64,000 nt of DNA from IMG/VR virus record IMGVR_UViG_3300031555_007715; one strand, 5' to 3'. The stretch comes from a virus (lineage: Duplodnaviria; Heunggongvirae; Uroviricota; Caudoviricetes). Shown here in pieces: positions 3,941 to 44,738 of this stretch. How positions within the stretch are numbered: position 1 is the first letter of the stretch; each line of letters opens with the position of its first letter. The position numbers were made by a program, and so were the translations under genes. The notes below the pieces were generated by a model. It saw nothing but the letters and a program-made list of their open reading frames with translations. It was not told the origin of the DNA and did no database searches.

Positions 3941-3950
3941 ATTCTCCTCC

Positions 3951-5294
3951 TTAATATGAGCGAATGGTGAGTTTTTTTTCTTTACTCCATTCTTTCAAGA
4001 ACAAAACATCGTCATCATTAGGCAATTTGTTAAATGCCTTTTTTGCTTGAACAATTTCATTGTCTTTGTTTATTTCGACCGTAATATACGGTTCCTCGTT
4101 TTTTCTAATTAAACAAATTCGAGTTTTACCGTCACAAACAGCGCCAATGTATGTTTTTACACAATGATGAAGCTTCTTGCTTTCATTGATTAAATCTAAC
4201 GGACGGGTTGGAATTATTACCTCCATCTCATTACTTTTATATGATAATGATTTGTATTCTTCCGTCGCCTGTGAAAATTTTTCCATTAGTTCTTCATCAA
4301 TTTTTTCGTCTTGAATAAGTTCATGTCTATCCATGGCAGCATTATGAGCCTGTTCTAAGTTTTCAGGGTATAAGTCTACGTCGTCAGCATTTACGTCAAT
4401 GAGATGAGTATAATCTCTATATAATCTCAAAAAATCTTCGAAGTTACTTCTGCAAGACCATGTTGTAAACTGTTCCCCTAGAGCACGAATATCAATGTTG
4501 TCATTCGTAAATATTGCTTTCATAATATAATTACAATATTCTGCAAAGTTAACAATATTGGTATCGTTAATAATAGAAAAAACCCGTTCTTCATTGGTAT
4601 GACTTGCTTCATATAAGTTTAATCTAAAAAATACCGCATGAAGTTTTCTGAGCATTTCAGGATTAAACTTAGAGCATAAACCAATGGAATCAGAAACAGT
4701 AATTGACAATTCCTGTGCAAGACAAAGAACTTTTTTGTTTAATAATGATGCACTAGGAATTTTTTCACCACCCGTGAAAAGTTTCTTCACGTATTTCATA
4801 TTTTCTGTCTCGATTAATAATGGGATTAGCTTGTGAATATTCTTAATAAAGACATTCATAATGTATATTGAATTTTGTTTTATATTTAACAAGGAACTCA
4901 TTAACAAAATGTCTGATATATCAAAGCTTTGGTGTTTAAGTATTTCTACAATAAAAATAACCAATACATCCTCATTACATACATTAGCTAATTCCGTATT
5001 ACTAATTTCAAAATCCTCAAACGGCTTTTCTATTTCATTGAACTCTTTATTATACACAAGATGCCATATTTCTTTTTTGTCAAATACAATTTCATCAGAA
5101 TCAATACTAATTACAACCTCATTACAAATCAAGCTATTACCCTCTATTTCTAAAAATCGGTAAGTATGTTTGTAATTGAAGACGTCTGATACTTTTTCTT
5201 TTACCCTAAACCCCATGGGATTATAATAATCCCCATTAACTTTTACCCAGACATCAATAATGTCTTTAGGCAATTTTGAGATAACTTTCATCAT
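3951..5294 (-). CDS. hypothetical protein (447 aa)
   Basis: long ORF preceded by a CGAAGGAGGG leader. Confidence 0.6.
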   Translation of the reverse strand: MMKVISKLPKDIIDVWVKVNGDYYNPMGFRVKEKVSDVFNYKHTYRFLEIEGNSLICNEVVISIDSDEIVFDKKEIWHLVYNKEFNEIEKPFEDFEISNTELANVCNEDVLVIFIVEILKHQSFDISDILLMSSLLNIKQNSIYIMNVFIKNIHKLIPLLIETENMKYVKKLFTGGEKIPSASLLNKKVLCLAQELSITVSDSIGLCSKFNPEMLRKLHAVFFRLNLYEASHTNEERVFSIINDTNIVNFAEYCNYIMKAIFTNDNIDIRALGEQFTTWSCRSNFEDFLRLYRDYTHLIDVNADDVDLYPENLEQAHNAAMDRHELIQDEKIDEELMEKFSQATEEYKSLSYKSNEMEVIIPTRPLDLINESKKLHHCVKTYIGAVCDGKTRICLIRKNEEPYITVEINKDNEIVQAKKAFNKLPNDDDVLFLKEWSKEKKLTIRSY

Positions 5295-5457
5295 ATAACC
5301 CTCCTTCGCATGTTATGATATGTTACTGTTGTGTATAACTACCTAGCCTAATTATATCACAAGTAAATACAACATCTTAAAAATGATATAATTGTTGTCA
5401 TAAATAGTATTTTGTGATATACTTTTTATGATATATTTATATATGGAGGTGAATGTT

Positions 5458-6264
5458 ATGCAATTTTTATTACAAAAATCCAATGATATTGATGTTATGG
5501 TTTTAAGAGGGGAATTAGATAAACAAAAATATTTATATGAGTATAATTTTGTGTCTATTGATGATATTGTAAATAATGGGCTTTCTGGTTACGATATGAA
5601 AAATGTTGTACCTGTTGGAAGTATTGAATTTGTAACAAAATATTTGAAAACATTTCACGGAGTTAATAATATGAATCCAATTGAAGTACCAACTGAGATG
5701 AGATTAGATAAGTTCTTAAACAGAGACTATCGTATTGTTAGTGCAGATGAGATACCAAAAGCAGGACGATATTTTATTAAAGATGTCAGCAAATTAAAAC
5801 AATTTTCATATTGTGGTGAGATGGAATATTTTTTCTATGATGGTATTTTTGAAACATCTGACAGAAGATTTGATACAAAGATTCACCTAGATAAGGAACA
5901 TTTATATCAAGTATCAACTATTTTAGATATTTTGTCGGAATATAGAGTATATGTTTTCAATGACGAGATACAAGGGATACAGTTTTATGATGGTATTCCA
6001 ACGATTATGCCAACTCCCGATGAGATTAAAAAAATAAAAGAAATGATAAACAGATATATACTTTGTGAATCGAGGCCAAAGGCTTATAGCTTAGATATTG
6101 CAATTATAAGAACAAAAAATGATATTGAAAGAGATGTTGCTGTTTTAGAAGTTCATCCTTTTGCTTGTCTAGGTCTATATGGAATAACTGGTAGTTTTTT
6201 GCCAATGGCATATAGAATGGGAATTGATTGGTATTTAAAACATAATAATATTGTGAAGAAATAA
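5458..6264 (+). CDS. hypothetical protein; weak resemblance to an ATP-grasp C-terminal motif (LEVHPFACLG)
   Basis: ATG at 5458 after GGAGGTG; the motif call is weak. Confidence 0.45.
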   Translation: MQFLLQKSNDIDVMVLRGELDKQKYLYEYNFVSIDDIVNNGLSGYDMKNVVPVGSIEFVTKYLKTFHGVNNMNPIEVPTEMRLDKFLNRDYRIVSADEIPKAGRYFIKDVSKLKQFSYCGEMEYFFYDGIFETSDRRFDTKIHLDKEHLYQVSTILDILSEYRVYVFNDEIQGIQFYDGIPTIMPTPDEIKKIKEMINRYILCESRPKAYSLDIAIIRTKNDIERDVAVLEVHPFACLGLYGITGSFLPMAYRMGIDWYLKHNNIVKK

Positions 6265-6305
6265 TATAAAAGCCCATGATGAGATATCCATCACGGGCTT
6301 TCTTT

Positions 6306-6503
6306 TTAAGTTAAAAATTTTTCGTTTTTTAAGTTTTCAAGATAGTATTTATATATCAGAATAACACACTTACAGTTATTTGAATACATTATTATGCATT
6401 TGTATTTTTTTAGTATTTTATCGTTTTCTTTTCTTTTTCTTTTCTCTTCAATAAATTTATCTTTTTGTTTATCTGATAACCTTGATAATAATCTTTTTTC
6501 CAA
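6306..6503 (-). CDS. small K/E-rich basic ORF with TTG start and no RBS
   Basis: ORF-track entry only; doubtful. Confidence 0.2.
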   Translation of the reverse strand: MEKRLLSRLSDKQKDKFIEEKRKRKENDKILKKYKCIIMYSNNCKCVILIYKYYLENLKNEKFLT

Positions 6504-6577
6504 TTTATTAAAAACTTCATCGGCGGGATAGGTTTTACCTTCTTGAATACTTTTCTCTGCCTCATCTAATGCTTTTT

Positions 6578-7075
6578 CTATTCTATTAATTTCTTTTTTT
6601 TTTCGTTTTCAGTAAAACCCATTCTTGACATGTTAAACATTATATTTGCCAATGCTTCTTCTTTTTCAATACCTTCATCAACATATACGTCCTGAGCTAG
6701 AACATTTTTAAAAGGTATAGTGTCATATCCGTAATGTTTAATTTTATTATTGCAGTCTCCCCATATGGATATTTCTCCATTTTCAGTTTTTTCATAGATA
6801 TCTTGTTTGAGACATAAAAAACTGTCTATATATGATTCGATGCTTTTATTTTCTTCGTTTATTTTTTCCTGATTTATAACAAAAACAACACTTTCGTTAA
6901 CCATATTTCCAATATTAACCTCAAGCATTTCATTCATAAATTTATTTAATTGTAAAATGGCTTGTTCTCTTATTGTTATTAATCCTATTTTATTTTCTAT
7001 GTTAAAATATTTTAAATATTCGTCATATAATTTTTCATAATTATCAATTGATGTAAATAAATCTTTTACTATCAT
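6578..7075 (-). CDS. hypothetical protein (165 aa)
   Basis: ORF with AAAGGAGAT RBS. Confidence 0.55.
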   Translation of the reverse strand: MIVKDLFTSIDNYEKLYDEYLKYFNIENKIGLITIREQAILQLNKFMNEMLEVNIGNMVNESVVFVINQEKINEENKSIESYIDSFLCLKQDIYEKTENGEISIWGDCNNKIKHYGYDTIPFKNVLAQDVYVDEGIEKEEALANIMFNMSRMGFTENEKKKKLIE

Positions 7076-7288
7076 ATTCGTATCTCCTTTGTTAAATATT
7101 TGCTTTTATTATAACATAATATTAATATTTTGTCTATAGGATATTTTTTTTGAAAATAAAATAGATATGGTATAATAAGGTAAGAAAGTCAATATTGTTT
7201 ATAGTACAGATTTATTGTACCGAAGGGGGATACAATACGACTTATCTTGTATCAAAAAAATATTTACAAACGAAGGAGGTAATATACA

Positions 7289-7717
7289 ATGAAGATATTT
7301 GAGTATATTATGCAATTTTTCCAACAATTTGAGTCATTAGACATAAATAGTCAAGACTCAACAGCGGGCATCTTGCTTGTTTTAATAATAAGCACTCTTA
7401 TTAATTTTATCGCTCAAACCTTTAAGGCAAGTGGTTCCGTAATAAAAGCGATAGCTAATGTAAAAAAGAAGAAGATTGCTTTGATGTCTGATAAGTTGGA
7501 CAATGAATTGAAGCAAGTGGAGCTTGAGTTAAAAGCCGAGGAACTTAAGTTAAAGCAAGAAGCACTTAAGCAGGAGCAGGAGAAAACCAAGCAATTAAAG
7601 CTTGCAAATAAGAAGGAAAGAGCAGAACAAAAAAGAGCCAATGAATTACATAAATTGGATGTTGCTGCTAAAGAAGTTGAGTTGCAAATCAAAAGAGCAA
7701 CTATCAACAACGATTAA
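7289..7717 (+). CDS. membrane-anchored coiled-coil protein (K/E/Q-rich)
   Basis: ACGAAGGAGGT leader; one hydrophobic segment followed by a KQEALKQEQEK-type coiled coil. Confidence 0.6.
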   Translation: MKIFEYIMQFFQQFESLDINSQDSTAGILLVLIISTLINFIAQTFKASGSVIKAIANVKKKKIALMSDKLDNELKQVELELKAEELKLKQEALKQEQEKTKQLKLANKKERAEQKRANELHKLDVAAKEVELQIKRATINND

Positions 7718-8080
7718 GGGACGGACATATGTATGTGTGTTAGCATTTTCTAGTTTTCGCTAACACAAATTTTAGGGCGTAGAACAGATACATCATGGGT
7801 GTGTACATGGTGTTGATTACCGATTACAAGCGTTAGCCGTAACGCTTATTTAAGACTACAGCGTTAGCCGTAACGCTATTACGAAGTACAGATTCCTCAA
7901 AGGAAAGATGTAGGCAAGCATAGACACAATATTGTTTTGCTGAGGATGGTTATAATGAAAACAAGTAGTTTCTAAGGCAAGATACAAGAAGGACTACATT
8001 TATAGAACAACGCATTTATAGAGCGTAGAAAAGAAACACCCCCTTGTTTCGGGCATCACAGAAATGTGATGCTTTTTTTA
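7718..8080 (+). ncRNA. structured noncoding tail or ncRNA ending at a rho-independent terminator
   Basis: hairpin 7737-7766 (GTGTTAGC/GCTAACAC). Two identical hairpins AGCGTTAGCCGTAACGCT at 7829-7846 and 7860-7877. Terminator GCATCACA-GAAA-TGTGATGC plus T7 at 8053-8079. Confidence 0.4.
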
Positions 8081-8103
8081 TTTACAAAAAAATAGAACAG
8101 GCG

Positions 8104-8304
8104 TTACCGCCTGCTCTTAATGTGTCTCGCACATTTACATCCAACCAGTGTTAATACTGTTCCAGCCAATGTTAATACTGCAAAAATAGCAATGACTGTC
8201 AGTATAATAGCCACCGTGGACAGTACTTCAATCAATCCTGTCAAAATATAATATCCTCCTTTGTCCTCTCTGTACTTGTGCATGATAAAACTTGCTAACA
8301 TCAT
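8104..8304 (-). CDS. small membrane protein (66 aa)
   Basis: hydrophobic ORF; no clear RBS. Confidence 0.3.
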   Translation of the reverse strand: MMLASFIMHKYREDKGGYYILTGLIEVLSTVAIILTVIAIFAVLTLAGTVLTLVGCKCARHIKSRR

Positions 8305-8361
8305 TATAACATATATATTAAAAAATAAAAAACCACCAACAGAAATGTCAGTGGTTGATAT

Positions 8362-8532
8362 TTATCTTTTTTCACATAACCTAAAGTTAATTTCTTTTTC
8401 CTTTTTCAGCTTTAATTTTTCATATGTCGATTTATGATAAAGGTATACAATGAAAGTTCCCAACAATATAAGACTAGAAATTCCAGCAACTATTAATAAT
8501 ATACTTACTATCCAACATAAAACGTTTATCAT
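8362..8532 (-). CDS. small membrane protein (56 aa, MINVLCWIVSILLIVAGISS...), not in ORF track
   Basis: manually translated from the minus strand; one TM followed by a basic tail. Confidence 0.3.
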   Translation of the reverse strand: MINVLCWIVSILLIVAGISSLILLGTFIVYLYHKSTYEKLKLKKEKEINFRLCEKR

Positions 8533-8656
8533 ATAGATTCTCCTTTCTTCTTTTCTTTGTGAGTGTTCTCCTATACTATATTATACACTTAATTATTGCT
8601 TTTGTCTATGATTTTTTGTAAAATATAAGAAAAAGAGTTTAGGAAGGGAGATTTTT

Positions 8657-9163
8657 ATGAAAAAAACTTATATTGTTATTTTAATTCTTTCTACAATTTT
8701 AATTGGTTGTAAGGGAAAAACAGAAGATATAGAAAATTGGAATAGTGGTGTAGTTGGTGATATAGTAATAACTACTCCTACTCCAACATCCGAGCCAGTA
8801 TATATACCACCCATTGATGAGCCAGTTGTCACACAACAACCAACAGGGATACCTCAAGTTACACCAGAGTCACCACAAGAAGAAATTCCTGTTAAAGATG
8901 ATGAAATATACGTCGGAGGGGTTCGATTTTTTCCTATTGAAAAAGATTTTGTTTGTTGGGAAGAAATTTATTGTAAGCTTTTCCCTACAGAAAAAAGTGA
9001 CGATTGCATGATTTTACATAAAGGCGATATTATCACTTCTGAGGCAATATCATCAAATGGTGAATGGATTTGGTTTAAGATGTTAGAAACAGATGTGTTT
9101 ATTCAAACAAGATATTGTGTAAATTTAGATAGCATTAACAGAGAAGATGAGCTGAATAATTAA
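8657..9163 (+). CDS. lipoprotein with Pro/Thr-rich linker
   Basis: signal peptide with lipobox LIGC; RBS AGGAAGGGAG. Confidence 0.65.
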   Translation: MKKTYIVILILSTILIGCKGKTEDIENWNSGVVGDIVITTPTPTSEPVYIPPIDEPVVTQQPTGIPQVTPESPQEEIPVKDDEIYVGGVRFFPIEKDFVCWEEIYCKLFPTEKSDDCMILHKGDIITSEAISSNGEWIWFKMLETDVFIQTRYCVNLDSINREDELNN

Positions 9164-9167
9164 TATT

Positions 9168-9911
9168 ATGATAAGAAATATTTTTAAAAAAAATAAAATA
9201 AAAAAAATAGTGCCAAAAGCTTTTAATATATACTTTAAAGATGAGATAAATGAATGTGTAGGTATAAATGATATTGATATGATATGTATATCTGATACGC
9301 ATGGATGTTTATTAAATAAAGACGGAGAAGATTATAAAAGATTAGTTTTTGAATTGAATAATAAATGCGATGTAGTAATTTTACTTGGCGATATCAGAAA
9401 AGATGAGCTACGTATTATTTGCAATTTAGTTAATAGAAATTTTCCTATTATTGCAGTAAAGGGAAATCATGATGACTATAATCAATTTAATAATTTTGAT
9501 GATATTATAGATATTCATAATAACGTATTTGAAATTAAGGGAATAAAGTTTATTGGCATTCAAGGATGTGTTTCTCCTTATAAACTAAAATGTGATTCAT
9601 TATATATTACTCAAGAAGATTCATTAGAATTTTCAGAAAAAATGGAACATGCCAATGTTATAATTTCTCATGCCTGTCCATATGATAGAGACTGCAATTT
9701 AGATTCTAGTGCATATTCATATGATTGTCACATCGGATTATTAGGTACATTAAAATACTTTTATGATAATAGATGTTTTTTAAATTTGCATGGTCATAAT
9801 CATAATACATCAAAAGAAGATAATAAAAAGATGTTAAATAAAGGGTATAGTGTTTCTATTTATAAAATTGAAAGGGTAGTAATTCAGTCAAAAAAAATAA
9901 TAACATTTTAA
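9168..9911 (+). CDS. calcineurin-like metallophosphoesterase
   Basis: motifs D-x-H (ICISDTHG), GD (LLGDI), GNHD. Confidence 0.7.
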   Translation: MIRNIFKKNKIKKIVPKAFNIYFKDEINECVGINDIDMICISDTHGCLLNKDGEDYKRLVFELNNKCDVVILLGDIRKDELRIICNLVNRNFPIIAVKGNHDDYNQFNNFDDIIDIHNNVFEIKGIKFIGIQGCVSPYKLKCDSLYITQEDSLEFSEKMEHANVIISHACPYDRDCNLDSSAYSYDCHIGLLGTLKYFYDNRCFLNLHGHNHNTSKEDNKKMLNKGYSVSIYKIERVVIQSKKIITF

Positions 9912-9981
9912 AATTCAGATTGACAGATGTCCTAATATGTGCTATAATTAATTCATAAGTTAATTTATCAGTTATTGTGTT

Positions 9982-10054
9982 GGGGTATTAGCTCAGATGG
10001 TAGAGCACTTGACTTTTAATCAAGGAGTCACGGGTTCGAGTCCCGTATGCCTCA
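9982..10054 (+). tRNA. tRNA-Lys (anticodon UUU)
   Basis: acceptor GGGGTAT/ATGCCTC, D-arm GCTC-AGATGGTA-GAGC, anticodon stem CTTGA/TCAAG with loop CTTTTAA, T-arm ACGGG-TTCGAGT-CCCGT. Confidence 0.8.
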
Positions 10055-10124
10055 TTAGAGCAAATTATTTCTATCATTTTCGATTACTTTGTTTCTAACA
10101 ATGACTAAAAGAAGAGAACGGAGC

Positions 10125-10742
10125 TTAGTCAACGCCGTTCTCTTCTTTTTTTATAAATTTTTTTTCATTGAAATCGTAATATTCACAATATTCAATATTC
10201 TCATCAATTCTATATCTAATTATATTTTCAGCAATCAATCTATTGTCATCAAATATCTCAAATGCCGATATAAGAGAATCAGTTTCTATTTTAATATTAT
10301 TGATACAAGAAATAATATATGTCCAATCATAAATTGGTGGTTCATATTGATATGATAATTCTTCATTGAACCATTCCTCACATTTAAATCCGTTATTGTT
10401 TAACCAGCATGAAACTAAGTGTCTATGACAAAAAGCATCTGATTTTTCATAACATAACAAATATATATCTATATCTTTGTAATATTTATTAAACCCAGCA
10501 AGATTATAAATTTCATTTATAACTTCCTTTGCATTGAGATTATTGAGTATTTTAGAATTATAAGCTTTTACATAATTAATATTATTATTCAATTGCTTCC
10601 AGCTTGATAAAATTTCATTTGTTGGTGCTAATTTTGTATATCTAAGTCCTTTATAAAAAGATGGTACATTAAAACTGATTGCAATTATTATTGCATTTTT
10701 TGGTAATTGATTTATTTTTGCAAAATATGTTGTATATATCAT
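10125..10742 (-). CDS. hypothetical protein starting MIYTTYFAK; possibly DUF488-like
   Basis: start reset to the ATG after AAAAGGGAGG; family call from memory of the MIYTxGF/Y N-terminal pattern. Confidence 0.4.
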   Translation of the reverse strand: MIYTTYFAKINQLPKNAIIIAISFNVPSFYKGLRYTKLAPTNEILSSWKQLNNNINYVKAYNSKILNNLNAKEVINEIYNLAGFNKYYKDIDIYLLCYEKSDAFCHRHLVSCWLNNNGFKCEEWFNEELSYQYEPPIYDWTYIISCINNIKIETDSLISAFEIFDDNRLIAENIIRYRIDENIEYCEYYDFNEKKFIKKEENGVD

Positions 10743-10882
10743 TTGAATTACCTCCCTTTTAGTACATTCTATCACTTTATGTTATGATAAACAAAAACAC
10801 AAACAAGAACAATTGAGTGTTGCACTATGTTATATTTTGTGGTACAATATTATTATAAAATATAAAAGAAAGGGATGATATT

Positions 10883-11779
10883 GTGGGTTGTTGGAATGAG
10901 ACATGTGGGTTAAGCCATTTACCTATTAAATATAAAGAAGATGTTAGATTTGTTATATTATTTGAAGTAAATGGGCATAAAAGAAAAGAGGGTATTTATT
11001 ATAATGATGAGTATGCTCCTTTATGTTTGCCTATGAGTGGGAAATATAATGATTATGGTTCTATCGAAAATGTCGATATTGAGTTATCTATAACATTAGA
11101 ACTATTAAAAAATTTAAAGCTGTTTATTAAAAATGATGGATATGTTCCTTATGAGTTTGAAGATATTGAAAAATTTTTAGATGATATTGGTGGAGAAGAA
11201 ATCTATTTTTATTGTGGACACACATATTATCGATTAAGAATTATTATGTACCATAAATCATTATTTGATTTACTTGTAAATAGCTTTTCATCAAGAGTTC
11301 CGTATAATCATCAAAAAAAAGACACCATTAAACTTTTATGGAAAGATAGAATCAATAGACATTATGAAAAGTTTTTAAATTTAAAAGATGAGATTAAAGA
11401 TTGTACTGATAAGAATGAAATTGAAAAATATGAATCAATGTTATTATTTAGAGCATTACAAGAGCCTGTTTTTTCATCTTCACAGTACTCTTATAATTTC
11501 GTTCGGGAATATGAAAAATATATTTCTAATGAAAATTTTGATAAGTACAGTGATTTGTTAATTGATTATATAATGTTTACAGAATCTTTAGCGGTTGGTA
11601 GACAAGGATTTTTTTCACTTAGCGGTTCAGGTAGTCAAGATACAGAAATGTATGTACAAAAATTAATTGCTGAATGGTCTTTATCCTTTATTGAAAATGC
11701 AAGAAAAGATGAGGATTGGGATATTTTAGAAGATGATGACGATATAAAAGAAACAGTTTTTTGGTATGACAGGGGGTAA
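10883..11779 (+). CDS. hypothetical protein (GTG start)
   Basis: 298-aa ORF, first gene of a tightly packed plus-strand operon. Confidence 0.55.
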   Translation: MGCWNETCGLSHLPIKYKEDVRFVILFEVNGHKRKEGIYYNDEYAPLCLPMSGKYNDYGSIENVDIELSITLELLKNLKLFIKNDGYVPYEFEDIEKFLDDIGGEEIYFYCGHTYYRLRIIMYHKSLFDLLVNSFSSRVPYNHQKKDTIKLLWKDRINRHYEKFLNLKDEIKDCTDKNEIEKYESMLLFRALQEPVFSSSQYSYNFVREYEKYISNENFDKYSDLLIDYIMFTESLAVGRQGFFSLSGSGSQDTEMYVQKLIAEWSLSFIENARKDEDWDILEDDDDIKETVFWYDRG

Positions 11780-11782
11780 ATT

Positions 11783-12301
11783 ATGAAAAAAGCTTATAAA
11801 TTGTTTAGATTAAAAGACGGCAAGTTATATCCTTTATTTGTTGATACTTCTACAGAAATGCCTATCGGACAATGGTTAGAAGCAAAAGAAGGAGAAAAAA
11901 TTAATAATAAAGTGAAGTCAAAAATAGGACCATTATGTTTTAGACCAGGGTTTCACCTTTCTGATATTCCGTTAGCAATACATATCGGGGTAAAAGGTGA
12001 ATCGGGCGATATTGAGTTCATGCATAAGGACCATGTGTGGTGTGAATGCGAGTATGATGATAAATATAATTATCAGTCTATAGCAAATAATAATGGTACT
12101 AAAAATGGTAAGTTAAGCCCAAAATATGCTTATTTGGACTATATCCCTAAAAACGGATATTATAGATATAAAACCAGTCCGAATATGTTAGGAGAATGGA
12201 TAATTGCTGGCAATATCAAAGTTTTAAGGATATTATCTGATGAAGAGGTTGCTGAAATTTTAGTTAATAAGGGTTACACTCCTATGTTAAGAGAAAAATA
12301 A
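11783..12301 (+). CDS. hypothetical protein (172 aa)
   Basis: ORF 3 nt after the previous stop. Confidence 0.55.
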   Translation: MKKAYKLFRLKDGKLYPLFVDTSTEMPIGQWLEAKEGEKINNKVKSKIGPLCFRPGFHLSDIPLAIHIGVKGESGDIEFMHKDHVWCECEYDDKYNYQSIANNNGTKNGKLSPKYAYLDYIPKNGYYRYKTSPNMLGEWIIAGNIKVLRILSDEEVAEILVNKGYTPMLREK

Positions 12302-12389
12302 TTTTTGATATTATCATTTTGATATTTACAAAATTAATAAAAGGTGATATTATTAATATATAAAATAAATTATAAAGGAGTGACCGATT

Positions 12390-13097
12390 ATGAGGGAAAA
12401 ATTAAAAAATGAATTTTTGGGTTGGAAGAAAATTGAGGTGTTATGGTTACTTATTGCATGTGTTGTAATTACTGCCTTATCTATTTATTGGGGCGATACT
12501 CTTATGGGAATTATCTCTGCTACAACAGGAGTAGCTTGTGTTGTTTGCACGGCTAAAGGCAAGTTAAGTGCATATGTGTTTGGATTAGTTAATTGCGTGT
12601 TATATGCGATTATTGCTTTTAAAGCAAAGTATTATGGCGAAGTATGTCTTAATATTTTGTACTACGCTCCATTACAATTTTATGGATTTTATGTATGGCA
12701 AAAAAATATGAATAATGAAACACATGAAGTTAACAAGAAAAGAATGACAAATAAGTTAAGGCTTATTTTAGCCGCTGTTGTTATTATTGCAACTGTTGCG
12801 TATGGATATTTTCTTGATATTTTAGGCGGGGAGCTTCCATATGTTGATGCATTAAGTACAGTTGTATCTGTTGTAGCAATGATTATTTCTATTAAAATGT
12901 ATACAGAACAATGGGCATTATGGATTGTTGTCAATGTTGTTACTGTTATTATGTGGTGTGTTGCTTTCATCAATGGAAGTGATAGCGTTGCGACATTGTT
13001 AATGTGGATGGTTTATTTGTTAAATTCTGTATTTGCATTTATAAAATGGAAAAAGGAAACGGAAGGCACTAAAACTGTAAATGTTTTAAGGGGGTAA
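12390..13097 (+). CDS. pnuC: nicotinamide riboside transporter PnuC family
   Basis: 235-aa polytopic membrane protein with Trp-rich TMs typical of PnuC; lies directly upstream of a NadR-like gene. Confidence 0.6.
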   Translation: MREKLKNEFLGWKKIEVLWLLIACVVITALSIYWGDTLMGIISATTGVACVVCTAKGKLSAYVFGLVNCVLYAIIAFKAKYYGEVCLNILYYAPLQFYGFYVWQKNMNNETHEVNKKRMTNKLRLILAAVVIIATVAYGYFLDILGGELPYVDALSTVVSVVAMIISIKMYTEQWALWIVVNVVTVIMWCVAFINGSDSVATLLMWMVYLLNSVFAFIKWKKETEGTKTVNVLRG

Positions 13098-13101
13098 TGG
13101 T

Positions 13102-14124
13102 ATGTATAAAGTAGGTATGTACGGTGGCAATTTTGACCCTCTTCATATTGGACACTTAAACTGTATGATAACGGCTGCGTGTATGTGTGAAGAATTATAT
13201 ATTATTTTAAGTTATAGCGAAAAAAGAGATTATGTTCCTTTTAGGTTACGGTATCGATGGATTAAAAATTCTCTAAAACATATTGGTAACGTCAAGGTTA
13301 TTTGTGTTGCTGATAATGCTGAAACTAAAGAAAAATATGATGATGATTGTTGGCAAAAAGGAGCAAATCAGATTAAAGCATTAATTGGAAAACATATCGA
13401 TGTTGTTTTTTGTGGCAGTGACTATGAGGGGCAAAATAGATTTGAAAAACTTTATGACGAGTCCGAAATATATTATTTTTCTAGAAACGATATTCCTATT
13501 AGTTCTACTGAAATAAGGGCAAATCCTTTTAAGTATTGGGATTATATTCCGAATATTGCAAAGCCTTATTTTGTAAAAAAAGTATTAATTGTTGGCGGTG
13601 AATCTACAGGAAAAAGTGTTTTAGTTAAGAATTTAGCTGTTAATTATAACACTAACTTTGTAGAAGAAGTTGGCAGGAATACTTGTGAATATGCTGGTGG
13701 AGAAGAATACATGATAGCCGATGATATGATAGAAAATATCATCAAACAAAAATTGAATGTTGATGAAGCCATTAAAAATAGCAATAAAATAGTTTTTGTT
13801 GATACAGATGCACTAACCACTTTGTTTTATTGTAAGTTTTTGTTAGGCGAAGAATCTAGCAATTATAAAGAGTGTGAAAATCTTGCTAATGCTGTTAATT
13901 CTCTTAACAACTGGGATTTGGTTATTTTTTTAGAACCGACAGTTAAATTTGTTCAGGATGGAACACGAAGCAATGAAATTGAGGTGGATAGAATTAAATA
14001 TAGTAATCAGATTAAAGAACTTTTAAATCAAAATGGCATACAATTTATAACTATTGACGGTAACTATAAAGATAGATACATAAAGACGAAACAAGAAGTT
14101 GATAAATTATTAGGAGGTTTTTAA
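13102..14124 (+). CDS. nadR: NadR-like bifunctional NMN adenylyltransferase / ribosylnicotinamide kinase (no HTH domain)
   Basis: nucleotidyltransferase motif GGNFDPLHIGH at the N-terminus; P-loop VLIVGGESTGKS in the C-terminal half. Confidence 0.75.
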   Translation: MYKVGMYGGNFDPLHIGHLNCMITAACMCEELYIILSYSEKRDYVPFRLRYRWIKNSLKHIGNVKVICVADNAETKEKYDDDCWQKGANQIKALIGKHIDVVFCGSDYEGQNRFEKLYDESEIYYFSRNDIPISSTEIRANPFKYWDYIPNIAKPYFVKKVLIVGGESTGKSVLVKNLAVNYNTNFVEEVGRNTCEYAGGEEYMIADDMIENIIKQKLNVDEAIKNSNKIVFVDTDALTTLFYCKFLLGEESSNYKECENLANAVNSLNNWDLVIFLEPTVKFVQDGTRSNEIEVDRIKYSNQIKELLNQNGIQFITIDGNYKDRYIKTKQEVDKLLGGF

Positions 14125-14125
14125 T

Positions 14126-14650
14126 ATGTCTATAAAAAAATTACAAACCCAATTAGAAGCAGAAGCAAATAATTATGTTACAAAGTATGGATTAGATGAC
14201 ACTGAAAAGCAGGAATTGTTATTTATTGTAAATTCTTTTGTTAAATACTACAATAATGCTAATAGCAAAGGAAAATCTTTGTCTAAAATTTTAAGAGAAT
14301 TTAAGGATTCTGTTGATGTTTTAATTAGTGGAGTATTTGGCAGAGACTTTTCTAGTGATGCTGTTAATATTTTTGAAAAACTTCCTTCAATAAAGGAAAT
14401 GTATCAAAAAAGTGTTAAAGAATTAGAGAAAGAAATTGAAGAGCTTAATATTCAAAATGGAGAATTAAAAGCAGAAATTGAAGAGCTAAATAAGCTTAAA
14501 AATAAACTGGAAAAACAAAAAGAAGCTTATAAAAAGAAGGCGGAAGCCCAGTCTAATAGCGGCTATAGCGGCGGATATGGTAATTATAATTCTAACAGCT
14601 ATGGCGGCTGTGGTGGAGGAGTGAGTTATCGTGGGTATGGAAGTTGCTAG
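14126..14650 (+). CDS. coiled-coil protein with G/Y/S/N-rich Cys-containing C-terminal tail (SGYSGGYGNYNSNSYGGCGGGVSYRGYGSC)
   Basis: ORF overlaps the start of the downstream radical-SAM gene. Confidence 0.55.
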   Translation: MSIKKLQTQLEAEANNYVTKYGLDDTEKQELLFIVNSFVKYYNNANSKGKSLSKILREFKDSVDVLISGVFGRDFSSDAVNIFEKLPSIKEMYQKSVKELEKEIEELNIQNGELKAEIEELNKLKNKLEKQKEAYKKKAEAQSNSGYSGGYGNYNSNSYGGCGGGVSYRGYGSC

Positions 14651-15581
14651 AACAATTAAGATTTTTGATAAAGAGATTTCCATAAGAAAATATGGATGCA
14701 AAAATTTTTTAATGAAAGAACCCTTATATATAGAAAAACCACGAATTAATATTTTCGTTCAAGTTACTAATTATTGTAATGCAAATTGTCCATTTTGTAT
14801 TTATCATCATACTGATTTAGGCAAAGACGCATTTAATCTTAAAAAGTTTGAGGAAATATTGAATTACTTTGTTTCAAGGGAAGATATTGATATTGGGAAG
14901 CTTAATTTTACAGGGGGCGAACCAGTTTCTTCCCAATATTTTGATGACATTATTTGTGCTTGCATGGAAAGTCTTGATTATACAAGAAAGCCAGAAGTTA
15001 CATTAAACACAAATGGGTTAAATCTCGATAAGATTATTAAATATCAAGATTTTCTTGATAATGTTGGATTGAGCAGACATCACTATCAAGATAATAAAAA
15101 TTATGAAATTTTCAGGGACACCTCAATTGCGAGCGGTGAAGATATTAAAGAAATGATGTCTTGCATAGATGATTCAAACAAATGGAAAATGCAATTAAGG
15201 TGCAATCTTATTAATGGGTATATTTGTAATTATGATGCTATGATTAAATATCTTGAACATGCTATTGAATTAGGAGTTCATGATTGCGGGTTTGTTACTC
15301 TCGCTCCAAATAACAAATTCTGTGTTGAACATCAAATAGATTTTAACTCATTAGTGAAAATTAGCGAGAATTTAATTAAGACTAATGGGTGGAAAAGACT
15401 TGATGATAATAATCATGAAAGTGTTTATTGCGAATGTGCTAATTATATGTATAGCAACAAAGTGGGAGAAATATGTAAATTCTATGCAAGGCTATTTTGT
15501 AATAACGATAATATTGATAGTATTTTAGTATACGATGGTCAATATTTGAGACATGGATTTGGGGGAAGAATAATTTTATAA
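14631..15581 (+). CDS. radical SAM enzyme
   Basis: C-x3-C-x2-C motif NYCNANCPFC; extra C-terminal Cys cluster CECANYMYSN...C. GTG start at 14631, alternative ATG at 14637. Confidence 0.7.
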   Translation: MGMEVARTIKIFDKEISIRKYGCKNFLMKEPLYIEKPRINIFVQVTNYCNANCPFCIYHHTDLGKDAFNLKKFEEILNYFVSREDIDIGKLNFTGGEPVSSQYFDDIICACMESLDYTRKPEVTLNTNGLNLDKIIKYQDFLDNVGLSRHHYQDNKNYEIFRDTSIASGEDIKEMMSCIDDSNKWKMQLRCNLINGYICNYDAMIKYLEHAIELGVHDCGFVTLAPNNKFCVEHQIDFNSLVKISENLIKTNGWKRLDDNNHESVYCECANYMYSNKVGEICKFYARLFCNNDNIDSILVYDGQYLRHGFGGRIIL

Positions 15582-15691
15582 TAGGAATATCGTTGTTAGT
15601 TATTTGAAACTAATAACGATATTTTTTATATTTACATATATCATATAATGTGGTATAATAATAGTATAATAAAGAAAGGAAGTGTTAGTAT

Positions 15692-16570
15692 ATGGGTTGT
15701 GATATTCATTTAATTGTTCAAGTAAAGAAAGACGGTAAATGGGAATATGTCAAAGAGGTTCCCCACTCATTAATGAAAAGAAAATATAGTACTTTTGCGT
15801 TTTTAGCTGATGTTAGGAATGATTTTGATACTAAGGGATTTAAGCCGAAAGGATTGCCTGACGATTTAGGTGGATTTAAATATGCTTTCGTTTCTGAAAC
15901 CGAAAGGTATAAAGAAATTTATAACGAAAAAACTACAAAAAAGGTATTGTTACCTGATGGTACTTATATTTCTCCTACGGATATTAGCATTAGATGTGAA
16001 GTTGAGACGGAAGCAGAAGCAAGGGCATTCGGTAATTATTCTATTCAATATGCAGGAGATGTTAGACATTGCTATATTTTTGACCCCGCAGTAAGAAATG
16101 GCGTTGAAAAAGAAGTGCCGTATAAGGAATTAACAACTCTTGATGAGTTCTTGAAAGATTATGGTGAGGAATATTGGGATGAAGAAATGAAGGATTATGG
16201 GTACTGGGAAGTACACTTTGATTGTGAAGATTATCATTCCCATTCATGGCTTTCTCTTAAAGAATTGAAAGAATTTGATAAGTCTGATTATCTTTGTAGT
16301 AAGGTAAGAATTAGTTCTTACTTTTATGATAATTTCGTTAAAATGGGTGGAGTATTACCAGATGGAATGACAGTAGAACAACATTCACCAGACGATTTTG
16401 TAGATGTACTAAGACAAGCTTTTAACCCAGAAGTTATTGTTAAGTTTATGGATGATGAGAAAAAAGATGAGGCTCCTGTTATGAAGGGGATTAGAGAGCT
16501 AGAGGATATTTCTAAGTTATATAATGTTGCTGATGATTGTATTAGAATTGTTTTTGCCTTTGATAATTAA
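15692..16570 (+). CDS. hypothetical protein (292 aa)
   Basis: ORF with AAAGGAAG RBS. Confidence 0.55.
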   Translation: MGCDIHLIVQVKKDGKWEYVKEVPHSLMKRKYSTFAFLADVRNDFDTKGFKPKGLPDDLGGFKYAFVSETERYKEIYNEKTTKKVLLPDGTYISPTDISIRCEVETEAEARAFGNYSIQYAGDVRHCYIFDPAVRNGVEKEVPYKELTTLDEFLKDYGEEYWDEEMKDYGYWEVHFDCEDYHSHSWLSLKELKEFDKSDYLCSKVRISSYFYDNFVKMGGVLPDGMTVEQHSPDDFVDVLRQAFNPEVIVKFMDDEKKDEAPVMKGIRELEDISKLYNVADDCIRIVFAFDN

Positions 16571-16689
16571 TATATGATTTAATGCCCTTAAGTTTTTTAT
16601 AACTTGAGGGTATTTTTTCTTATAAGTATTGATTTTATTTTTGATATACATTATAATCGAATTATAGATTATAATGTGAGGTAAGATTT

Positions 16690-18234
16690 ATGAAGGATAA
16701 GATTTTAATACAAGACACAGTAACACATACAACCCAGAAAAGTATCGACAATATGTTTCTTAATAATAATATAGCAATAGATAACTATAAATACATGGAT
16801 TATACAGTTCAGTCCGTTTTATTAAGAGGAACAATATATGATATTCATTCTTTGTGGAATGAAAAAGCTAAAGCAAGAGAATCCTTTTTCATTGATGGAG
16901 AAAGTGAAGTAATTGGTATTCCTAACTTTTTTGTAAAAATTAATGGTGTATTTGAAGATAAAAAAAAGCAAAAGGAACTTGAAAAAATACTTACAGAAGA
17001 CTCTGTAGTGTTTAGAGATTTTCATGTTTGCGATGTGCATCATTTTCATCATGGTTCTATGAATACAAAAAATATATATGATTTCATAAAAGATGGTAAT
17101 TTTTCTATAGAAAAGATACAAAAATTTATTAATATGGTTTGTGAATATAAAGATTATTTTAAATATGAGCAAAATATAATTAATAATTTAAATAAATCTG
17201 TGGTCAATAATATTGTACATGCATTAAATGTATTTTATAAAGCAATAAGAAAAGAAATTTGGAAGTCTCTTGATGATTATAATGAAGAATATTTGAATTT
17301 TATTTTAAGCGTTATTTTTATGAAAGATGATATTATAAGTCAAGTTAATAAATGGGACTACTCATCTTCTGTTCCTAAAATAGTTATTTATGATGAGTAT
17401 GTTTCTGAAAAAGGAAATATTTCTGATTATTTAATGGTTGACTTTTTAAATTATATTGGGTTAGACATTGCTATTATTTGTCCGTCAGCGAGAAGCAGTA
17501 TTGAATTATTTGAGTTTTCTTTAAATGATTCGTATTTAACAAGATTGGTTTTGGATAAATTTTTAGAACCTAGTAAAGTATCGTATGAAGACAAATGTGT
17601 AAGAAAAGGCATAATAACTGTTATATCGGCTATTGCGGGTATTGTTATTGTTATATGTTTAATTATAAAGGCACTACAGCCTGTTATTGAGCAACGAAAA
17701 GAAGATAAAAGAATGGCTCATATAGATAGCGTTGAATTAATGATAGATAATATAGGTGAAGTGACCTTAGATAAACATGATGTAATTTTTAATACATATA
17801 CTGAATATGAAAAATTGGTTGAGGAAGATAAATTACTTGTTGATAATAAAAATGTATTAATAGATGCTGTTGATAAGTATTATGCTTTAGATAATGAAAG
17901 TAAAATAAAAGAAAAAATTCAGACAATAATAAAAGATATTGATGGTTTAAGTACATATAACGATGAGAACGTAAGTATTTATAGTTATGCAAAAGATATA
18001 AATGATAGATATGAGTCATTATCAGCTCCAGAAAAAGAACTTGTAACTAATTATGAAGTATTAAAAGAATTTATTAATAGTGATGAATATGTGTCACATA
18101 CATCACCCTTTGGAACATTGGCTGGAAGTTTGAGTGATATTAGTAGTTTAGTATTTAGAATTTTAATAATGACTCTTGCTTTTTCAGTAGTTTTTACGGG
18201 GTTTGGTATTATCAGGAGAATGATGGAAAGATAA
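16690..18234 (+). CDS. hypothetical protein with C-terminal TM segments and a His-rich patch (DVHHFHHG)
   Basis: 514-aa ORF. Confidence 0.6.
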   Translation: MKDKILIQDTVTHTTQKSIDNMFLNNNIAIDNYKYMDYTVQSVLLRGTIYDIHSLWNEKAKARESFFIDGESEVIGIPNFFVKINGVFEDKKKQKELEKILTEDSVVFRDFHVCDVHHFHHGSMNTKNIYDFIKDGNFSIEKIQKFINMVCEYKDYFKYEQNIINNLNKSVVNNIVHALNVFYKAIRKEIWKSLDDYNEEYLNFILSVIFMKDDIISQVNKWDYSSSVPKIVIYDEYVSEKGNISDYLMVDFLNYIGLDIAIICPSARSSIELFEFSLNDSYLTRLVLDKFLEPSKVSYEDKCVRKGIITVISAIAGIVIVICLIIKALQPVIEQRKEDKRMAHIDSVELMIDNIGEVTLDKHDVIFNTYTEYEKLVEEDKLLVDNKNVLIDAVDKYYALDNESKIKEKIQTIIKDIDGLSTYNDENVSIYSYAKDINDRYESLSAPEKELVTNYEVLKEFINSDEYVSHTSPFGTLAGSLSDISSLVFRILIMTLAFSVVFTGFGIIRRMMER

Positions 18235-18271
18235 AAATATCGGGCTGGTTAGTTTTAACCAGCCCTTATTG

Positions 18272-18943
18272 TTATTTCGTTGATTTCGACGAATTGTTAT
18301 TGTTTTTTTCCTTTTTATTGTTGAACCCGACAACCATCATCATTGCGGAGATGTTGTCAATATCAGTATCACCGTTAACAGTAACAGTTGTACTGCCAAT
18401 AATATCTTTTTTGATATCAAATATCTTGTTGTCTTCGTTATCTCTAATAGTAGCATTACCAAACAGAGAAAACAGATTTGTTTTTAACGTTCCCAATTTT
18501 GTATCAGAGCCGCTATAAATATTATAGTCTTTTTTTACGGACAACTTATATGAGATATACGACAATACTTTATTATCGATGTCAACAACTTTCCATGTAC
18601 TTGCCATCAAGTGAAAATCTTCGTTCGTTTTAAATAAATCATTCCCATTGATAGAAGTAAACGTATACGTTTTGTTGAAGAAAAGATAAAACATATCGCT
18701 TTTGATTGTTCCGAGCTTTTTTCCATCTACAACAACGCTGTATGTTTCAGTTAGTGACGGCTTGTCTCTGTGAAGATAAACTTCATCAGCAGAATTAATC
18801 ATACTGATAATCTCTTCATCAGTAACGTTTTCAGCTACTTCATAATCGCTTGTTACTGCCGACACAATCCAGCCAAAGGCAAAAATGATAAATATGACAG
18901 CAAGAGCAACAATATACAGTAGGTATTTTCTGATACTCTTCAT
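18272..18943 (-). CDS. membrane-anchored protein (N-terminal TM, beta-rich ectodomain)
   Basis: start reset to MKSIRKYL after AAAGGAGGG. Confidence 0.55.
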   Translation of the reverse strand: MKSIRKYLLYIVALAVIFIIFAFGWIVSAVTSDYEVAENVTDEEIISMINSADEVYLHRDKPSLTETYSVVVDGKKLGTIKSDMFYLFFNKTYTFTSINGNDLFKTNEDFHLMASTWKVVDIDNKVLSYISYKLSVKKDYNIYSGSDTKLGTLKTNLFSLFGNATIRDNEDNKIFDIKKDIIGSTTVTVNGDTDIDNISAMMMVVGFNNKKEKNNNNSSKSTK

Positions 18944-18966
18944 AATGTGGTTCCCTCCTTTGTAAA

Positions 18967-19194
18967 TCAAGTCATAGATGTTTCAATGCTTTCGAATAAT
19001 TCCCAAAAGTCACTAAGGTCTTTTTTTGAACCGTAATAACGTAAAGCATAGCAGTCGCTAAGTCTATTTCCATTACAGTCATATGCATTGGGTTCAATTC
19101 TAAGATTGATATCGCCGTATTTTACAACGGCTATTGCATATAACTCTTTTTCCTTCTCATCAAAATTTGTTAATAAAAATTCATCTTCATCCAT
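18967..19194 (-). CDS. hypothetical small protein
   Basis: RBS GTAGGAGGAAAAA. Confidence 0.5.
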   Translation of the reverse strand: MDEDEFLLTNFDEKEKELYAIAVVKYGDINLRIEPNAYDCNGNRLSDCYALRYYGSKKDLSDFWELFESIETSMT

Positions 19195-22428: not shown

Positions 22429-23277
22429 TTATTGTTTTCTTAAATTGCAACAATCTTCTTTATTTGGGTTAAAGTTATTTTTCCAATATTCATATGCATC
22501 TGATTCATCTTCACAAACACTAATTTCTTTAAAACCAGTAATCTTTTTAATAAGTTCTTTTTTCTTATCAAGAGGAAGATGTTTATAATTACTTTGTTTT
22601 ATTGTGTAGTCACTATAATCAATATTAAACCATTTTTGAATCCAAGTATTAACTCTTAAAAATTCAACCTGAATTTTATCACATTGAACATTGTTTAATA
22701 TTTCGTAATCTATGTACTCATCAATAAATGGTGATAATCTCAGTGCAACATCAAATCCTTCTTTTTGAAGTTTTTCAATTGCTGCAATTCTTTTACTAGG
22801 CACTGTTGCTTTTTCATATGTAAGAGATAAATCATCATCAGTTGTTGTGACTGTAATTTGGATATGTGCCAAGTTTTTATCCATTATTTTTATATACTCA
22901 TCATCAGCAACAAGGTCGCTTTTTGTTACAATTAAATATGATATTTTTTCTTCATTTAATGCTTTTATTGTTTCGTATGTAACTCTTTTTATTTTTTCTA
23001 TAGGTTGAAAACAATCTGTCATTCCACCTAGTCTTACAATATTAATATTCCCATCTTTTTTTATTTTTTTTATAGTTTTTTTAATTTTTTCAATATCCGC
23101 AATAGAAGGGTCAGTTGGATTCCAAAGATTTCTGAAATCAAGCAAGGATTTTGCGTAGCAATAGCTACAATCGTGTTGGCATCCCTTTCCGTATGTGTCT
23201 AACCTATGGGGATATTTACATTTATCACCTTCATTGCCTTTTACAGACTTAAAAAAGCTTTTAAATTCATCTGCCAT
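22429..23277 (-). CDS. radical SAM enzyme (SPL/photolyase-like layout)
   Basis: C-x3-C-x2-C motif CQHDCSYC near the N-terminus. Confidence 0.6.
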   Translation of the reverse strand: MADEFKSFFKSVKGNEGDKCKYPHRLDTYGKGCQHDCSYCYAKSLLDFRNLWNPTDPSIADIEKIKKTIKKIKKDGNINIVRLGGMTDCFQPIEKIKRVTYETIKALNEEKISYLIVTKSDLVADDEYIKIMDKNLAHIQITVTTTDDDLSLTYEKATVPSKRIAAIEKLQKEGFDVALRLSPFIDEYIDYEILNNVQCDKIQVEFLRVNTWIQKWFNIDYSDYTIKQSNYKHLPLDKKKELIKKITGFKEISVCEDESDAYEYWKNNFNPNKEDCCNLRKQ

Positions 23278-24683: not shown

Positions 24684-24840
24684 TTTATCATCTTCTTTCC
24701 TTTTATTTGATTTAATTTTACCACTAATTATGGTATTTGTCAATAGCGTAAAAAAGTTATAAAGATTTTAAATATATATTGCTTTTTTTGTGTTTTTATT
24801 ATATAATATTATTATAATACATAAAAGGAGTGTTTATATT

Positions 24841-39529: not shown

Positions 39530-39733
39530 AAGTCTTCTCCTTTTTCGTATTTTATCATTGAAGATATTAATTATATATCACACAATTAGTCATATTTCAA
39601 TACATTATGTCATTTTTAAGAATATTTTGTCGAATTATAATTGATATTTTTTTTATTAAATGTTATATTATAAGTGATTAATAAGATTGTAAATATTAAT
39701 GGTTATAAAATAACTCACTTTTTAGGGGGTAAT

Positions 39734-44414: not shown

Positions 44415-44738
44415 CAAACCATCTCCCTTTTTACATATTTTTATATTATAATTATACCATAAATTATTCTTTTTGTCACTAAAAAAATGCTTTTTTACAC
44501 AAAAAAAGGGTCGCTATTTCTAGCAACCCCAAAGAACTAAGCCGTGAATAACAGAGATGAATTTGGTGGACAATTCCTATCTCGGAATCGTCCTTTTCTT
44601 CTTGTTATTGTTATTCGATGGAATATTCGATGGAATCATCTTCCCCGCTACGGCTAAAGACTTTATGTTTTTATTATATAACAATATTTTCATAAAGTCA
44701 AATGAAAGTTCCCTATTGAGTAGTTTTTTGTTTTATGG

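Follow-up and report, generated by a model that had tools for sequence, protein, structure and literature searches.

The stretch of DNA analysed here, a window of 64,000 nucleotides from the IMG/VR virus record IMGVR_UViG_3300031555_007715 (Caudoviricetes), contains two adjacent plus-strand genes, pnuC (12390-13097) and nadR (13102-14124), that very probably form a NARP3-type NAD+ salvage module; the element carrying it is probably a large phage, or resembles one, with a low-GC gut bacterium as host. This kind of system is already known. The study that described the phage NAD+ reconstitution pathways NARP1 and NARP2 noted that phage NadR usually shares an operon with PnuC and proposed a further NAD+ pathway (10.1101/2024.02.11.579819, Discussion and Fig. 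S3), and Iyer et al. (2021) placed a fusion of a HIGH-nucleotidyltransferase and a P-loop kinase among the counter-NAD+ systems of jumbo phages (PMC7824862). NARP3 was named in August 2026 (Sci Adv) for the Bas30_86/87 operon of Escherichia phage TrudiRoth: the transporter Bas30_87 binds and imports nicotinamide riboside (NR), and Bas30_86, a NadR without helix-turn-helix (HTH) domain, converts NR to nicotinamide mononucleotide (NMN) and then to NAD+. Both genes are needed, and together they restore NAD+ and plating against Sir2-HerA and DSR1 (PMC13464706). An earlier note on this DNA had presented the pair as a distinct NR-based route. The pair does differ from NARP1 and NARP2, but the route is not new, having been predicted in 2024 and demonstrated in 2026; the present copy is a new, distant and divergent example.

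The first gene encodes a protein of 235 aa, predicted to be an NR transporter. It matches the Pfam family PF04973 (E 1.5e-47), reaches 145.6 bits against a cutoff of 42.45 with the NCBIfam PnuC equivalog TIGR01528, and matches phrog_1880, "PnuC-like nicotinamide mononucleotide transport" (E 4.6e-64). Residues 8-222 align with the solved NR transporter of Neisseria mucosa (4QTN, E 1.2e-50). PnuC is 43% identical to the protein of this NR-bound structure and 41% identical to the T5-like versions. In the alignment its Q96 and N182 correspond to Q94 and N180 of Bas30_87, the NR-binding residues that were mutated in the NARP3 study and proved essential (PMC13464706), and the EQWxxW motif is invariant.

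The second gene encodes a NadR-like enzyme of 340 aa with an NMN adenylyltransferase (NMNAT) domain (residues ~1-150) and a ribosylnicotinamide kinase domain (residues ~158-340), matching PF01467 (cytidylyltransferase-like) and PF13521 (P-loop kinase) in Pfam. It scores 211 bits with the NCBIfam NadR model NF005988, whose cutoff is 201, and matches phrog_3462 with an E-value of 3e-83; like phrog_1880, this PHROG is classed as auxiliary metabolic. With TIGR01526 it reaches 233 bits, under the cutoff of 341, a score on which it appears as a divergent member. The solved NadR structures 8x7f, 9x6f, 1lw7 and 6gye are matched at E 2.6e-49 to 2e-31 (2.6e-49 to 4e-40 for the first three). For both genes, the E-values of the family matches lie far past chance. 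Entry 9x6f is taken to be Bas30_86, because the residues mutated in the NARP3 study (K10, F11, S37, E80, P84, G89 and F110) fall exactly into place in its sequence.

The protein was aligned with the NadR of Haemophilus influenzae, an enterobacterial NadR, 9x6f, the homologues from Salmonella phage SE3 and Bacillus phage Nate, and a Clostridia-like homologue. Every canonical NMNAT and kinase motif is invariant in this alignment. The GxFxPxHxGH nucleotidyltransferase motif (G9-N-F-D-P-L-H-I-G-H18, 13126-13155, plus strand) keeps G9, F11, P13, G17 and H18; the second NMNAT motif, ISSTEIR (residues 133-139, 13498-13518, plus strand), keeps S134 and R139; and the Walker A P-loop of the kinase domain, GGESTGKS (residues 165-172, 13594-13617, plus strand), keeps G165, E167, S168, G170 and K171. 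The Walker B motif VFVDTD and the LID motif DGTR (residues 286-289) are both present, and D234/T235 (Walker B), D272 and D286/G287/R289 (LID) are likewise invariant. The N-terminal HTH domain is absent, because the match to NF005988 begins at profile position 64 and spans only positions 64-407 of 411; the protein itself begins at the NMNAT motif (G9-H18). A trifunctional NadR of the enterobacterial type, with its HTH repressor domain, is thereby ruled out, hence a bifunctional, enzyme-only NadR. The earlier note had recognised the PnuC-type gene, the NadR-like gene directly after it with both motifs, and the missing DNA-binding domain, and these readings hold. The profile searches it proposed place both proteins over curated cutoffs, PnuC in PF04973/TIGR01528 and NadR in NF005988, and on alignment and profiles no catalytic residue is missing and the first gene belongs to the PnuC family.

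The two genes lie on the same strand, 4 nt apart, and the ribosome-binding site of nadR falls within the 3' end of pnuC, which indicates translational coupling. Several features of NARP3 are thus found here. One gene encodes an NR transporter of the PnuC family, and the adjacent one a NadR that lacks the HTH but has both the NMNAT and the ribosylnicotinamide kinase domain intact; from the short gap and shared strand, the two are expected to be co-transcribed. The canonical motifs and the equivalents of PnuC Q94/N180 are shared with the characterised system, and the chemistry to be expected from them is the same, from NR through NMN to NAD+. This order of conversion, already proposed in the earlier note, is supported by the family assignments, the residue checks and the NARP3 precedent (PMC13464706). 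There are differences as well. The gene order is pnuC-nadR here and nadR-pnuC in the T5-like phages (Bas30, SE3); the NadR of the window has the canonical H-x-G-H where the T5-like enzymes have T-R-G-H; the DNA is of ~30% G + C, with its nearest relatives on contigs of gut metagenome-assembled genomes (MAGs) rather than in Enterobacteriaceae phages; and two further genes, orf174 and a radical SAM gene, appear to be co-transcribed with the pair, both being lacking in NARP3.

Several residue comparisons weigh against this assignment. NadR is only 33% identical to the characterised Bas30_86/T5-like NadR, and some residues mutated in Bas30_86 are not kept, with K10 replaced by N, E230 by V, and the E80/P84/G89 loop different. 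In PnuC, the position of N45 of Bas30_87 is occupied by Gly. However, the same NadR positions also vary in H. influenzae, and N. mucosa PnuC also varies at the N45 position (Gly); we read the differing positions of both proteins as lineage-specific contacts rather than lost function, because these proteins vary there too.

The substitution of N45 is also relevant to the possibility that the transporter has another Pnu substrate, such as thiamine, riboflavin or a deoxynucleoside, with the NadR-like enzyme using a nucleoside other than NR. Transporters of other vitamins are known in the Pnu family, and in relatives of this locus the cassette to which the pair belongs adjoins genes of Ter (tellurite-resistance type) systems predicted to make a nucleoside-like metabolite. 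We nevertheless consider such a substrate very improbable: PnuC is well over the cutoff of the NR-specific TIGR01528 equivalog, it resembles the protein of the NR-bound structure at the identity given above, and it shares its operon with a complete NadR. To our knowledge, all characterised NadR enzymes have two domains specific for NR and NMN.

With NR as the predicted substrate, extracellular NR would diffuse across the membrane through PnuC and would be phosphorylated to NMN, and so trapped in the cell, by the C-terminal P-loop kinase domain of NadR; the N-terminal HIGH-motif adenylyltransferase domain would then join NMN to AMP from ATP, giving NAD+. Because the HTH repressor domain is missing, NadR would act purely as an enzyme. 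The module would in this way maintain the NAD+ pool during infection, and the most likely benefit would be to offset NAD+-depleting defences of the SIR2, TIR or DSR type, as with the homologues Bas30_86/87; a second possible benefit would be to meet the NAD+ demand of the phage itself. The same families and the same facilitated uptake followed by trapping through phosphorylation are known from the bacterial PnuC-NadR salvage of H. influenzae, Salmonella/Escherichia coli and Lactococcus lactis (1LW7, 8X7F, 6GYE, 4QTN), whereas enterobacterial NadR carries an N-terminal HTH repressor, and the bacterial genes belong to the host NAD regulon while those of the window lie in a phage-like accessory region. 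NARP1 (Adps and Namat) and NARP2 (Nampt and Nmnat) are likewise phage two-enzyme systems that rebuild NAD+ against NAD+-depleting defences (10.1101/2024.02.11.579819). However, they begin with intracellular ADP-ribose and nicotinamide, whereas PnuC-NadR imports an external precursor; it shares no enzyme with NARP1, and with NARP2 only the generic NMN adenylyltransferase step.

The same biochemistry could also serve a plain auxiliary metabolic module that supplies NAD+ in an NR-dependent host or feeds NAD+-consuming enzymes of the phage, such as an NAD-dependent ligase or ADP-ribosyl enzymes, and that the sequence cannot separate this from a counter-defence role tells against our preferred interpretation. 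The closest genomic relatives lie within clusters of NAD metabolism on MAG contigs. On a 1.2-Mb circular Bacilli contig (L010), the cluster comprises genes for a NAPRTase-like and a Prs-like protein, PnuC, NadR and an ADP-ribosylglycohydrolase, and on another contig (L014) genes for NadE, Prs, PnuC, NadR and NrtR. On a phage-like contig of 165 kb, a copy with 63% identity has a gene for an NAD-dependent DNA ligase at a distance of ~1.8 kb, and an ADP-ribosylglycohydrolase gene is also found on the same contig as the window, 8-9 kb past its left end (L123 19508-20470; the L010 counterpart, 11105-12253, directly follows NadR). Moreover, a jumbo-phage survey found pnuC in 68 of 174 "NAD-jumbo phages" as part of a self-sufficient NAD+ synthesis (PMC11662467). 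On the other hand, the sole experimental test of such an operon gave a counter-defence phenotype (PMC13464706), and no NAD+-dependent ligase or other evident NAD+ consumer was found within the window. We therefore regard a purely metabolic role as a serious but lesser possibility, the two roles not being mutually exclusive. As a separate observation, the ADP-ribosylglycohydrolase may represent a second NAD/ADP-ribose-related function in these elements. PADLOC defence models gave no match for PnuC, NadR, orf298, orf172, orf292 or the YceG-domain protein.

NadR homologues are present in 499 of 50,697 deposited phage records, with hosts that include Salmonella, Vibrio, Klebsiella, Escherichia, Enterococcus, Bacillus, Lactobacillus and Prevotella, and an annotated PnuC adjoins NadR in the two records that were opened, those of Bacillus phage Nate and Salmonella phage SE3. 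The spread of NARP3-type systems thus exceeds the mainly enterobacterial range given in the NARP3 paper, and the present locus would carry it past Enterobacteriaceae phages into probable huge phages of low-GC gut bacteria. At E<=1e-30 the NadR of the window has 1,179 relatives; apart from the identical protein, the matches listed share 58-72% identity with it, and all come from metagenome assemblies. The best matches among species representatives are on the circular Bacilli MAG contig (59%), a MAG contig labelled Muribaculaceae (58%), a "Tenericutes" MAG (56%) and Lachnospiraceae (45-53%). In all 17 loci from bacterial genome or MAG contigs pnuC lies immediately 5' of nadR, the order found in the window. 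Because the nearest relatives (up to 59% identity) are on gut MAG contigs and all have this order, the two genes were probably acquired together, from a pnuC-nadR operon of a gut bacterium. In the phage collection, the best match of NadR is to MT836087 (44%), which looks bacterial, with genes for an ABC transporter, DNA polymerase I and an NrtR-like Nudix protein. The relevant part of this record (L003, MT836087.1, "UNVERIFIED Bacteriophage sp.", 3857-6779) encodes the NrtR-like Nudix regulator, an open reading frame (ORF) of 163 aa, an HTH-less NadR and PnuC; the 163-aa ORF is YbiA/NADAR-like by eye only.

The earlier note had called the pair phage-borne. Judged from its gene content, this is probable, the carrier being a large phage, or an element like one, with a gut bacterium of low G + C as host. 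The window has a G + C content of ~30% throughout, frequent strand switches and five tRNA genes, with a tRNA cluster (Phe, Gln, Ile(TAT), Lys) at 1266-2642 and 9981-10055, and it encodes RtcB, an RNA ligase, thymidylate synthase (ThyA), DHFR and an R2K ATP-grasp protein. The 59 ORFs that do not belong to the operon were reported to match 31 PHROG families, at least 25 of them named. Six PcfJ-like paralogues (3951-5294, 30268-32175, 39674-41377, 42408-44417, 47129-48907 and 54311-56542) share a C-terminal region (phrog_3169, 8470, 16315), and within the phage collection they match nothing but 230-kb jumbo phages with Acinetobacter or Bacillus as host. Ribosomal genes, genes for translation factors and core housekeeping genes in general are missing from the 64 kb.

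Against a phage origin stand the lack of genes for capsid, terminase or tail, both in the window and over the 10 kb past its left end, where the same contig encodes RuvB, Thg1 and the ADP-ribosylglycohydrolase; the lack of any deposited phage match in an INPHARED nucleotide search with 10000-19000; and the lack of close NadR relatives in IMG/VR when searched with NadR patterns. Together with the bacterial MAG contigs among the nearest relatives and the bacterial appearance of MT836087, these points would favour a location on a chromosome or plasmid of a bacterium, or on another mobile element, in which case the genes would be a common NR salvage operon of the host. This explanation seems unlikely in view of the missing housekeeping genes, the strand switches, the number of PHROG families, the tRNA cluster with RtcB, RNA ligase, ThyA and DHFR, and the paralogues with jumbo-phage matches only. 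The identical NadR on contigs of <=136 kb from many samples was weighed against a phage origin and also against a bacterial locus. The product of the ORF at the right end of the window is not on record. For the tRNA genes, the ARAGORN call at 2571-2642 has an odd four-base anticodon loop and was not confirmed by Rfam.

The pair is closely followed by two further plus-strand genes. The first, orf174 (also called X; 14126-14650), starts 1 nt past the nadR stop, with its ribosome-binding site in the preceding gene, and encodes a helical, coiled-coil protein of 174 aa for which Pfam and NCBIfam searches gave no family. It ends in the tail SYGGCGGGVSYRGYGSC. This tail is rich in Gly, Ser and Tyr, has two Cys, the final residue always being Cys, and is kept in orthologues and in very distant relatives (for example SYGSCGGGSRRSYGGC, DPCSGGYSSSRGGRC and SCGGGYSTPGC). 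The second gene (14631-15581), which overlaps orf174 by 14-20 nt, encodes a radical SAM enzyme of 316 aa, or 314 aa from the ATG at 14637, with a predicted MoaA-like fold and no named family. It matches PF04055 (E 1.5e-11), and a search of 5.8 billion proteins gave only 30 relatives at E<=1e-10; more distant relatives are found on IMG/VR contigs of 17-299 kb. The enzyme contains the conserved cysteines C49/C53/C56 (CxxxCxxC), C191, C231, C267 and C269. The nearest PDB fold to its AlphaFold model (pLDDT 89) is MoaA (TM 0.6, 17% identity), followed by BlsE, SuiB, viperin and SkfB.

Assignment to known radical SAM families failed. As MoaA, the enzyme reaches 52 bits with TIGR02666 against a cutoff of 284, the fold being alike at the low identity given above; as viperin (pVip), it reaches 45 bits with NF038283 against a cutoff of 180, and the PADLOC pVip match (54 bits) covers only core residues 41-194. 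NrdG, QueE, PqqE and other named families all score far under their cutoffs, and the fold search returned generic radical SAM neighbours. With MoaA, viperin and the peptide maturases the enzyme shares the CxxxCxxC core, extra cysteines possibly for an auxiliary cluster, and the MoaA-like fold. As in the radical SAM peptide maturases, a small partner gene lies upstream, and the C-terminal tail of its product is conserved and substrate-like. Unlike them, the enzyme has no SPASM or RRE domain recognisable by Pfam, and its partner is a helical protein of 120-190 aa rather than a short peptide. Our best guess is a modification of the orf174 Cys tail by the enzyme, in the manner of peptide-modifying radical SAM enzymes, with orf174 as its probable substrate or partner.

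The block pnuC-nadR-orf174-radical SAM has not been previously described and is the only fresh lead at this locus. The same arrangement is found on L027 (identity 70% for NadR, 61% for the radical SAM enzyme and 40% for orf174) and is also kept in L034, L043, L014 and the IMG/VR viral contig L037; in L033 it is rearranged to orf174-like gene, radical SAM gene, NMNAT gene and pnuC, with an NMNAT-only enzyme. Among de-duplicated loci with adequate flanks, NadR and/or PnuC lie within 8 kb in 10 of 22 loci where the radical SAM gene is paired with an orf174-like gene and in 2 of 22 where it is not, a count biased by the fact that some of the NAD-linked loci were found through NadR. For loci found via the radical SAM gene only, ~6-8 of 16-18 have NadR and/or PnuC nearby. 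About 40% of these two-gene modules adjoin them, while only ~1% of phage records have NadR.

It is tempting to see the four genes as one functional unit, an extended NARP3 variant in which the radical SAM enzyme and its Cys-tailed partner would act on, or require, the NR, NMN or NAD+ of the pair or would add a second activity to the same conflict. The NR pair would then be half of a cassette conserved in a large-phage lineage and its gut-bacterial relatives, the other half being the orf174 protein and the MoaA-like enzyme. The close gene spacing, the promoter-like site before pnuC, the hairpin with T-run past the radical SAM gene, and the recurrence of the block and of its linkage to NAD genes speak for this. 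If true, a radical-SAM-modified protein or peptide acting in NAD+ conflict, or needing NAD+, would make it an extended NARP3 with new chemistry. However, we give this proposal only tentative credence. The module also occurs away from NAD genes in bacterial housekeeping surroundings (L031 and L032, with trigger factor, RecJ and UvrC) and on several large viral contigs. Eight such loci have neighbours of a general kind, for nucleotide functions and RNA repair, and co-location in accessory islands could partly explain the linkage, for which the count through NadR-found loci is biased. A universal link to NAD was rejected, these eight loci having one NAD-ligase and one Prs gene among 107 neighbours. 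The characterised NARP3 requires two genes only. The literature search found no paper tying radical SAM functionally to phage PnuC/NadR, the sole paper with all terms being a 2012 vibriophage genome description, by title only. We know of no chemistry that joins a peptide-tail radical SAM enzyme to NAD+. What the comparison offers beyond the NARP3-type pair is thus a recurrent and undescribed linkage to the Cys-tailed protein and radical SAM enzyme.

The two-gene module itself, for which there is no described family, was observed at 14126-15581 in the window, in L027 (11028-12456), L034 (2541-4035) and L031 (6535-7924), and in L036, L039, L056 and L075; its small proteins are helical, of 120-190 aa, and their genes overlap the radical SAM gene. 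In one branch of the radical SAM enzymes, a third gene (~260-300 aa, with a C-terminus like FFIKLSPINxN) lies 5' of the Cys-tailed gene (L035 6704-7618, L088 6828-7613, L060 6863-7642, L047 6867-7649), which suggests a three-gene version of the module.

The earlier note had placed the pair in a single eight-gene operon (10883-18234). This has to be revised, as the eight plus-strand genes probably form four transcription units and tight coupling covers only pnuC, nadR, orf174 and the radical SAM gene, with which the pair would be transcribed. A promoter-like site (TTTACA-17-TATTAT with a TG extension, 12325-12353, plus strand) lies 36 nt 5' of pnuC, whose ribosome-binding site AAAGGAG is at ~12376-12382 (plus strand), and a terminator-like hairpin with T-run (15583-15626, plus strand) stands directly 3' of the radical SAM stop. 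It is followed by a promoter-like TTTACA-17-TGgTATAAT (15631-15659, plus strand) 5' of orf292, a hairpin with T-run after orf292 (16581-16614), a promoter-like site with a TG-extended -10 (16629-16657) 5' of the YceG-domain gene, and a hairpin with T-run (18242-18265) after the last gene of the block. Terminator-like sites number 6, as compared with 1.9 +/- 1.7 in shuffles; promoter-like sites in this AT-rich DNA are not enriched over shuffles, and because of this the promoters and terminators found by scanning are predictions only. The two upstream genes at 10883-12301 were rejected as part of the pair, since they are absent in L027, the sole close relative with upstream genes examined, and a promoter-like site intervenes. 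For a riboswitch 5' of pnuC (NAD+-I/II), Rfam gave no match at the gathering threshold in the window or at E<=5 in 10700-12450.

Some of the neighbouring genes merit mention. An "active DUF488-N3a" protein (10125-10775, minus strand) is encoded directly upstream of the plus-strand block and an R2K-clade ATP-grasp protein (5428-6264, plus strand) further left, both families being typical of large-phage conflict systems. A second, unrelated radical SAM gene (Fer4_12 type) adjoins RtcB, near thymidylate synthase (22429-23277, minus strand; 23376-24743, minus strand; 25686-26537, plus strand), and RtcB and extra radical SAM genes recur near the two-gene modules on other large viral contigs. Finally, Ter genes recur beside the four-gene cassette. 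That of the window encodes the YceG-domain membrane protein of 514 aa (16690-18234, plus strand); L027 has TelA and a 749-aa TerD protein (757-1788, 13843-16092), and L034 has a full Ter biosynthetic module (4314-10249) with C-C lyase, ATP-grasp, PRTase, StiP/PELOTA, vWA-TerF and HAD proteins. In jumbo phages, Ter genes are regarded as superinfection or xenobiotic defences by Iyer et al. (PMC7824862).

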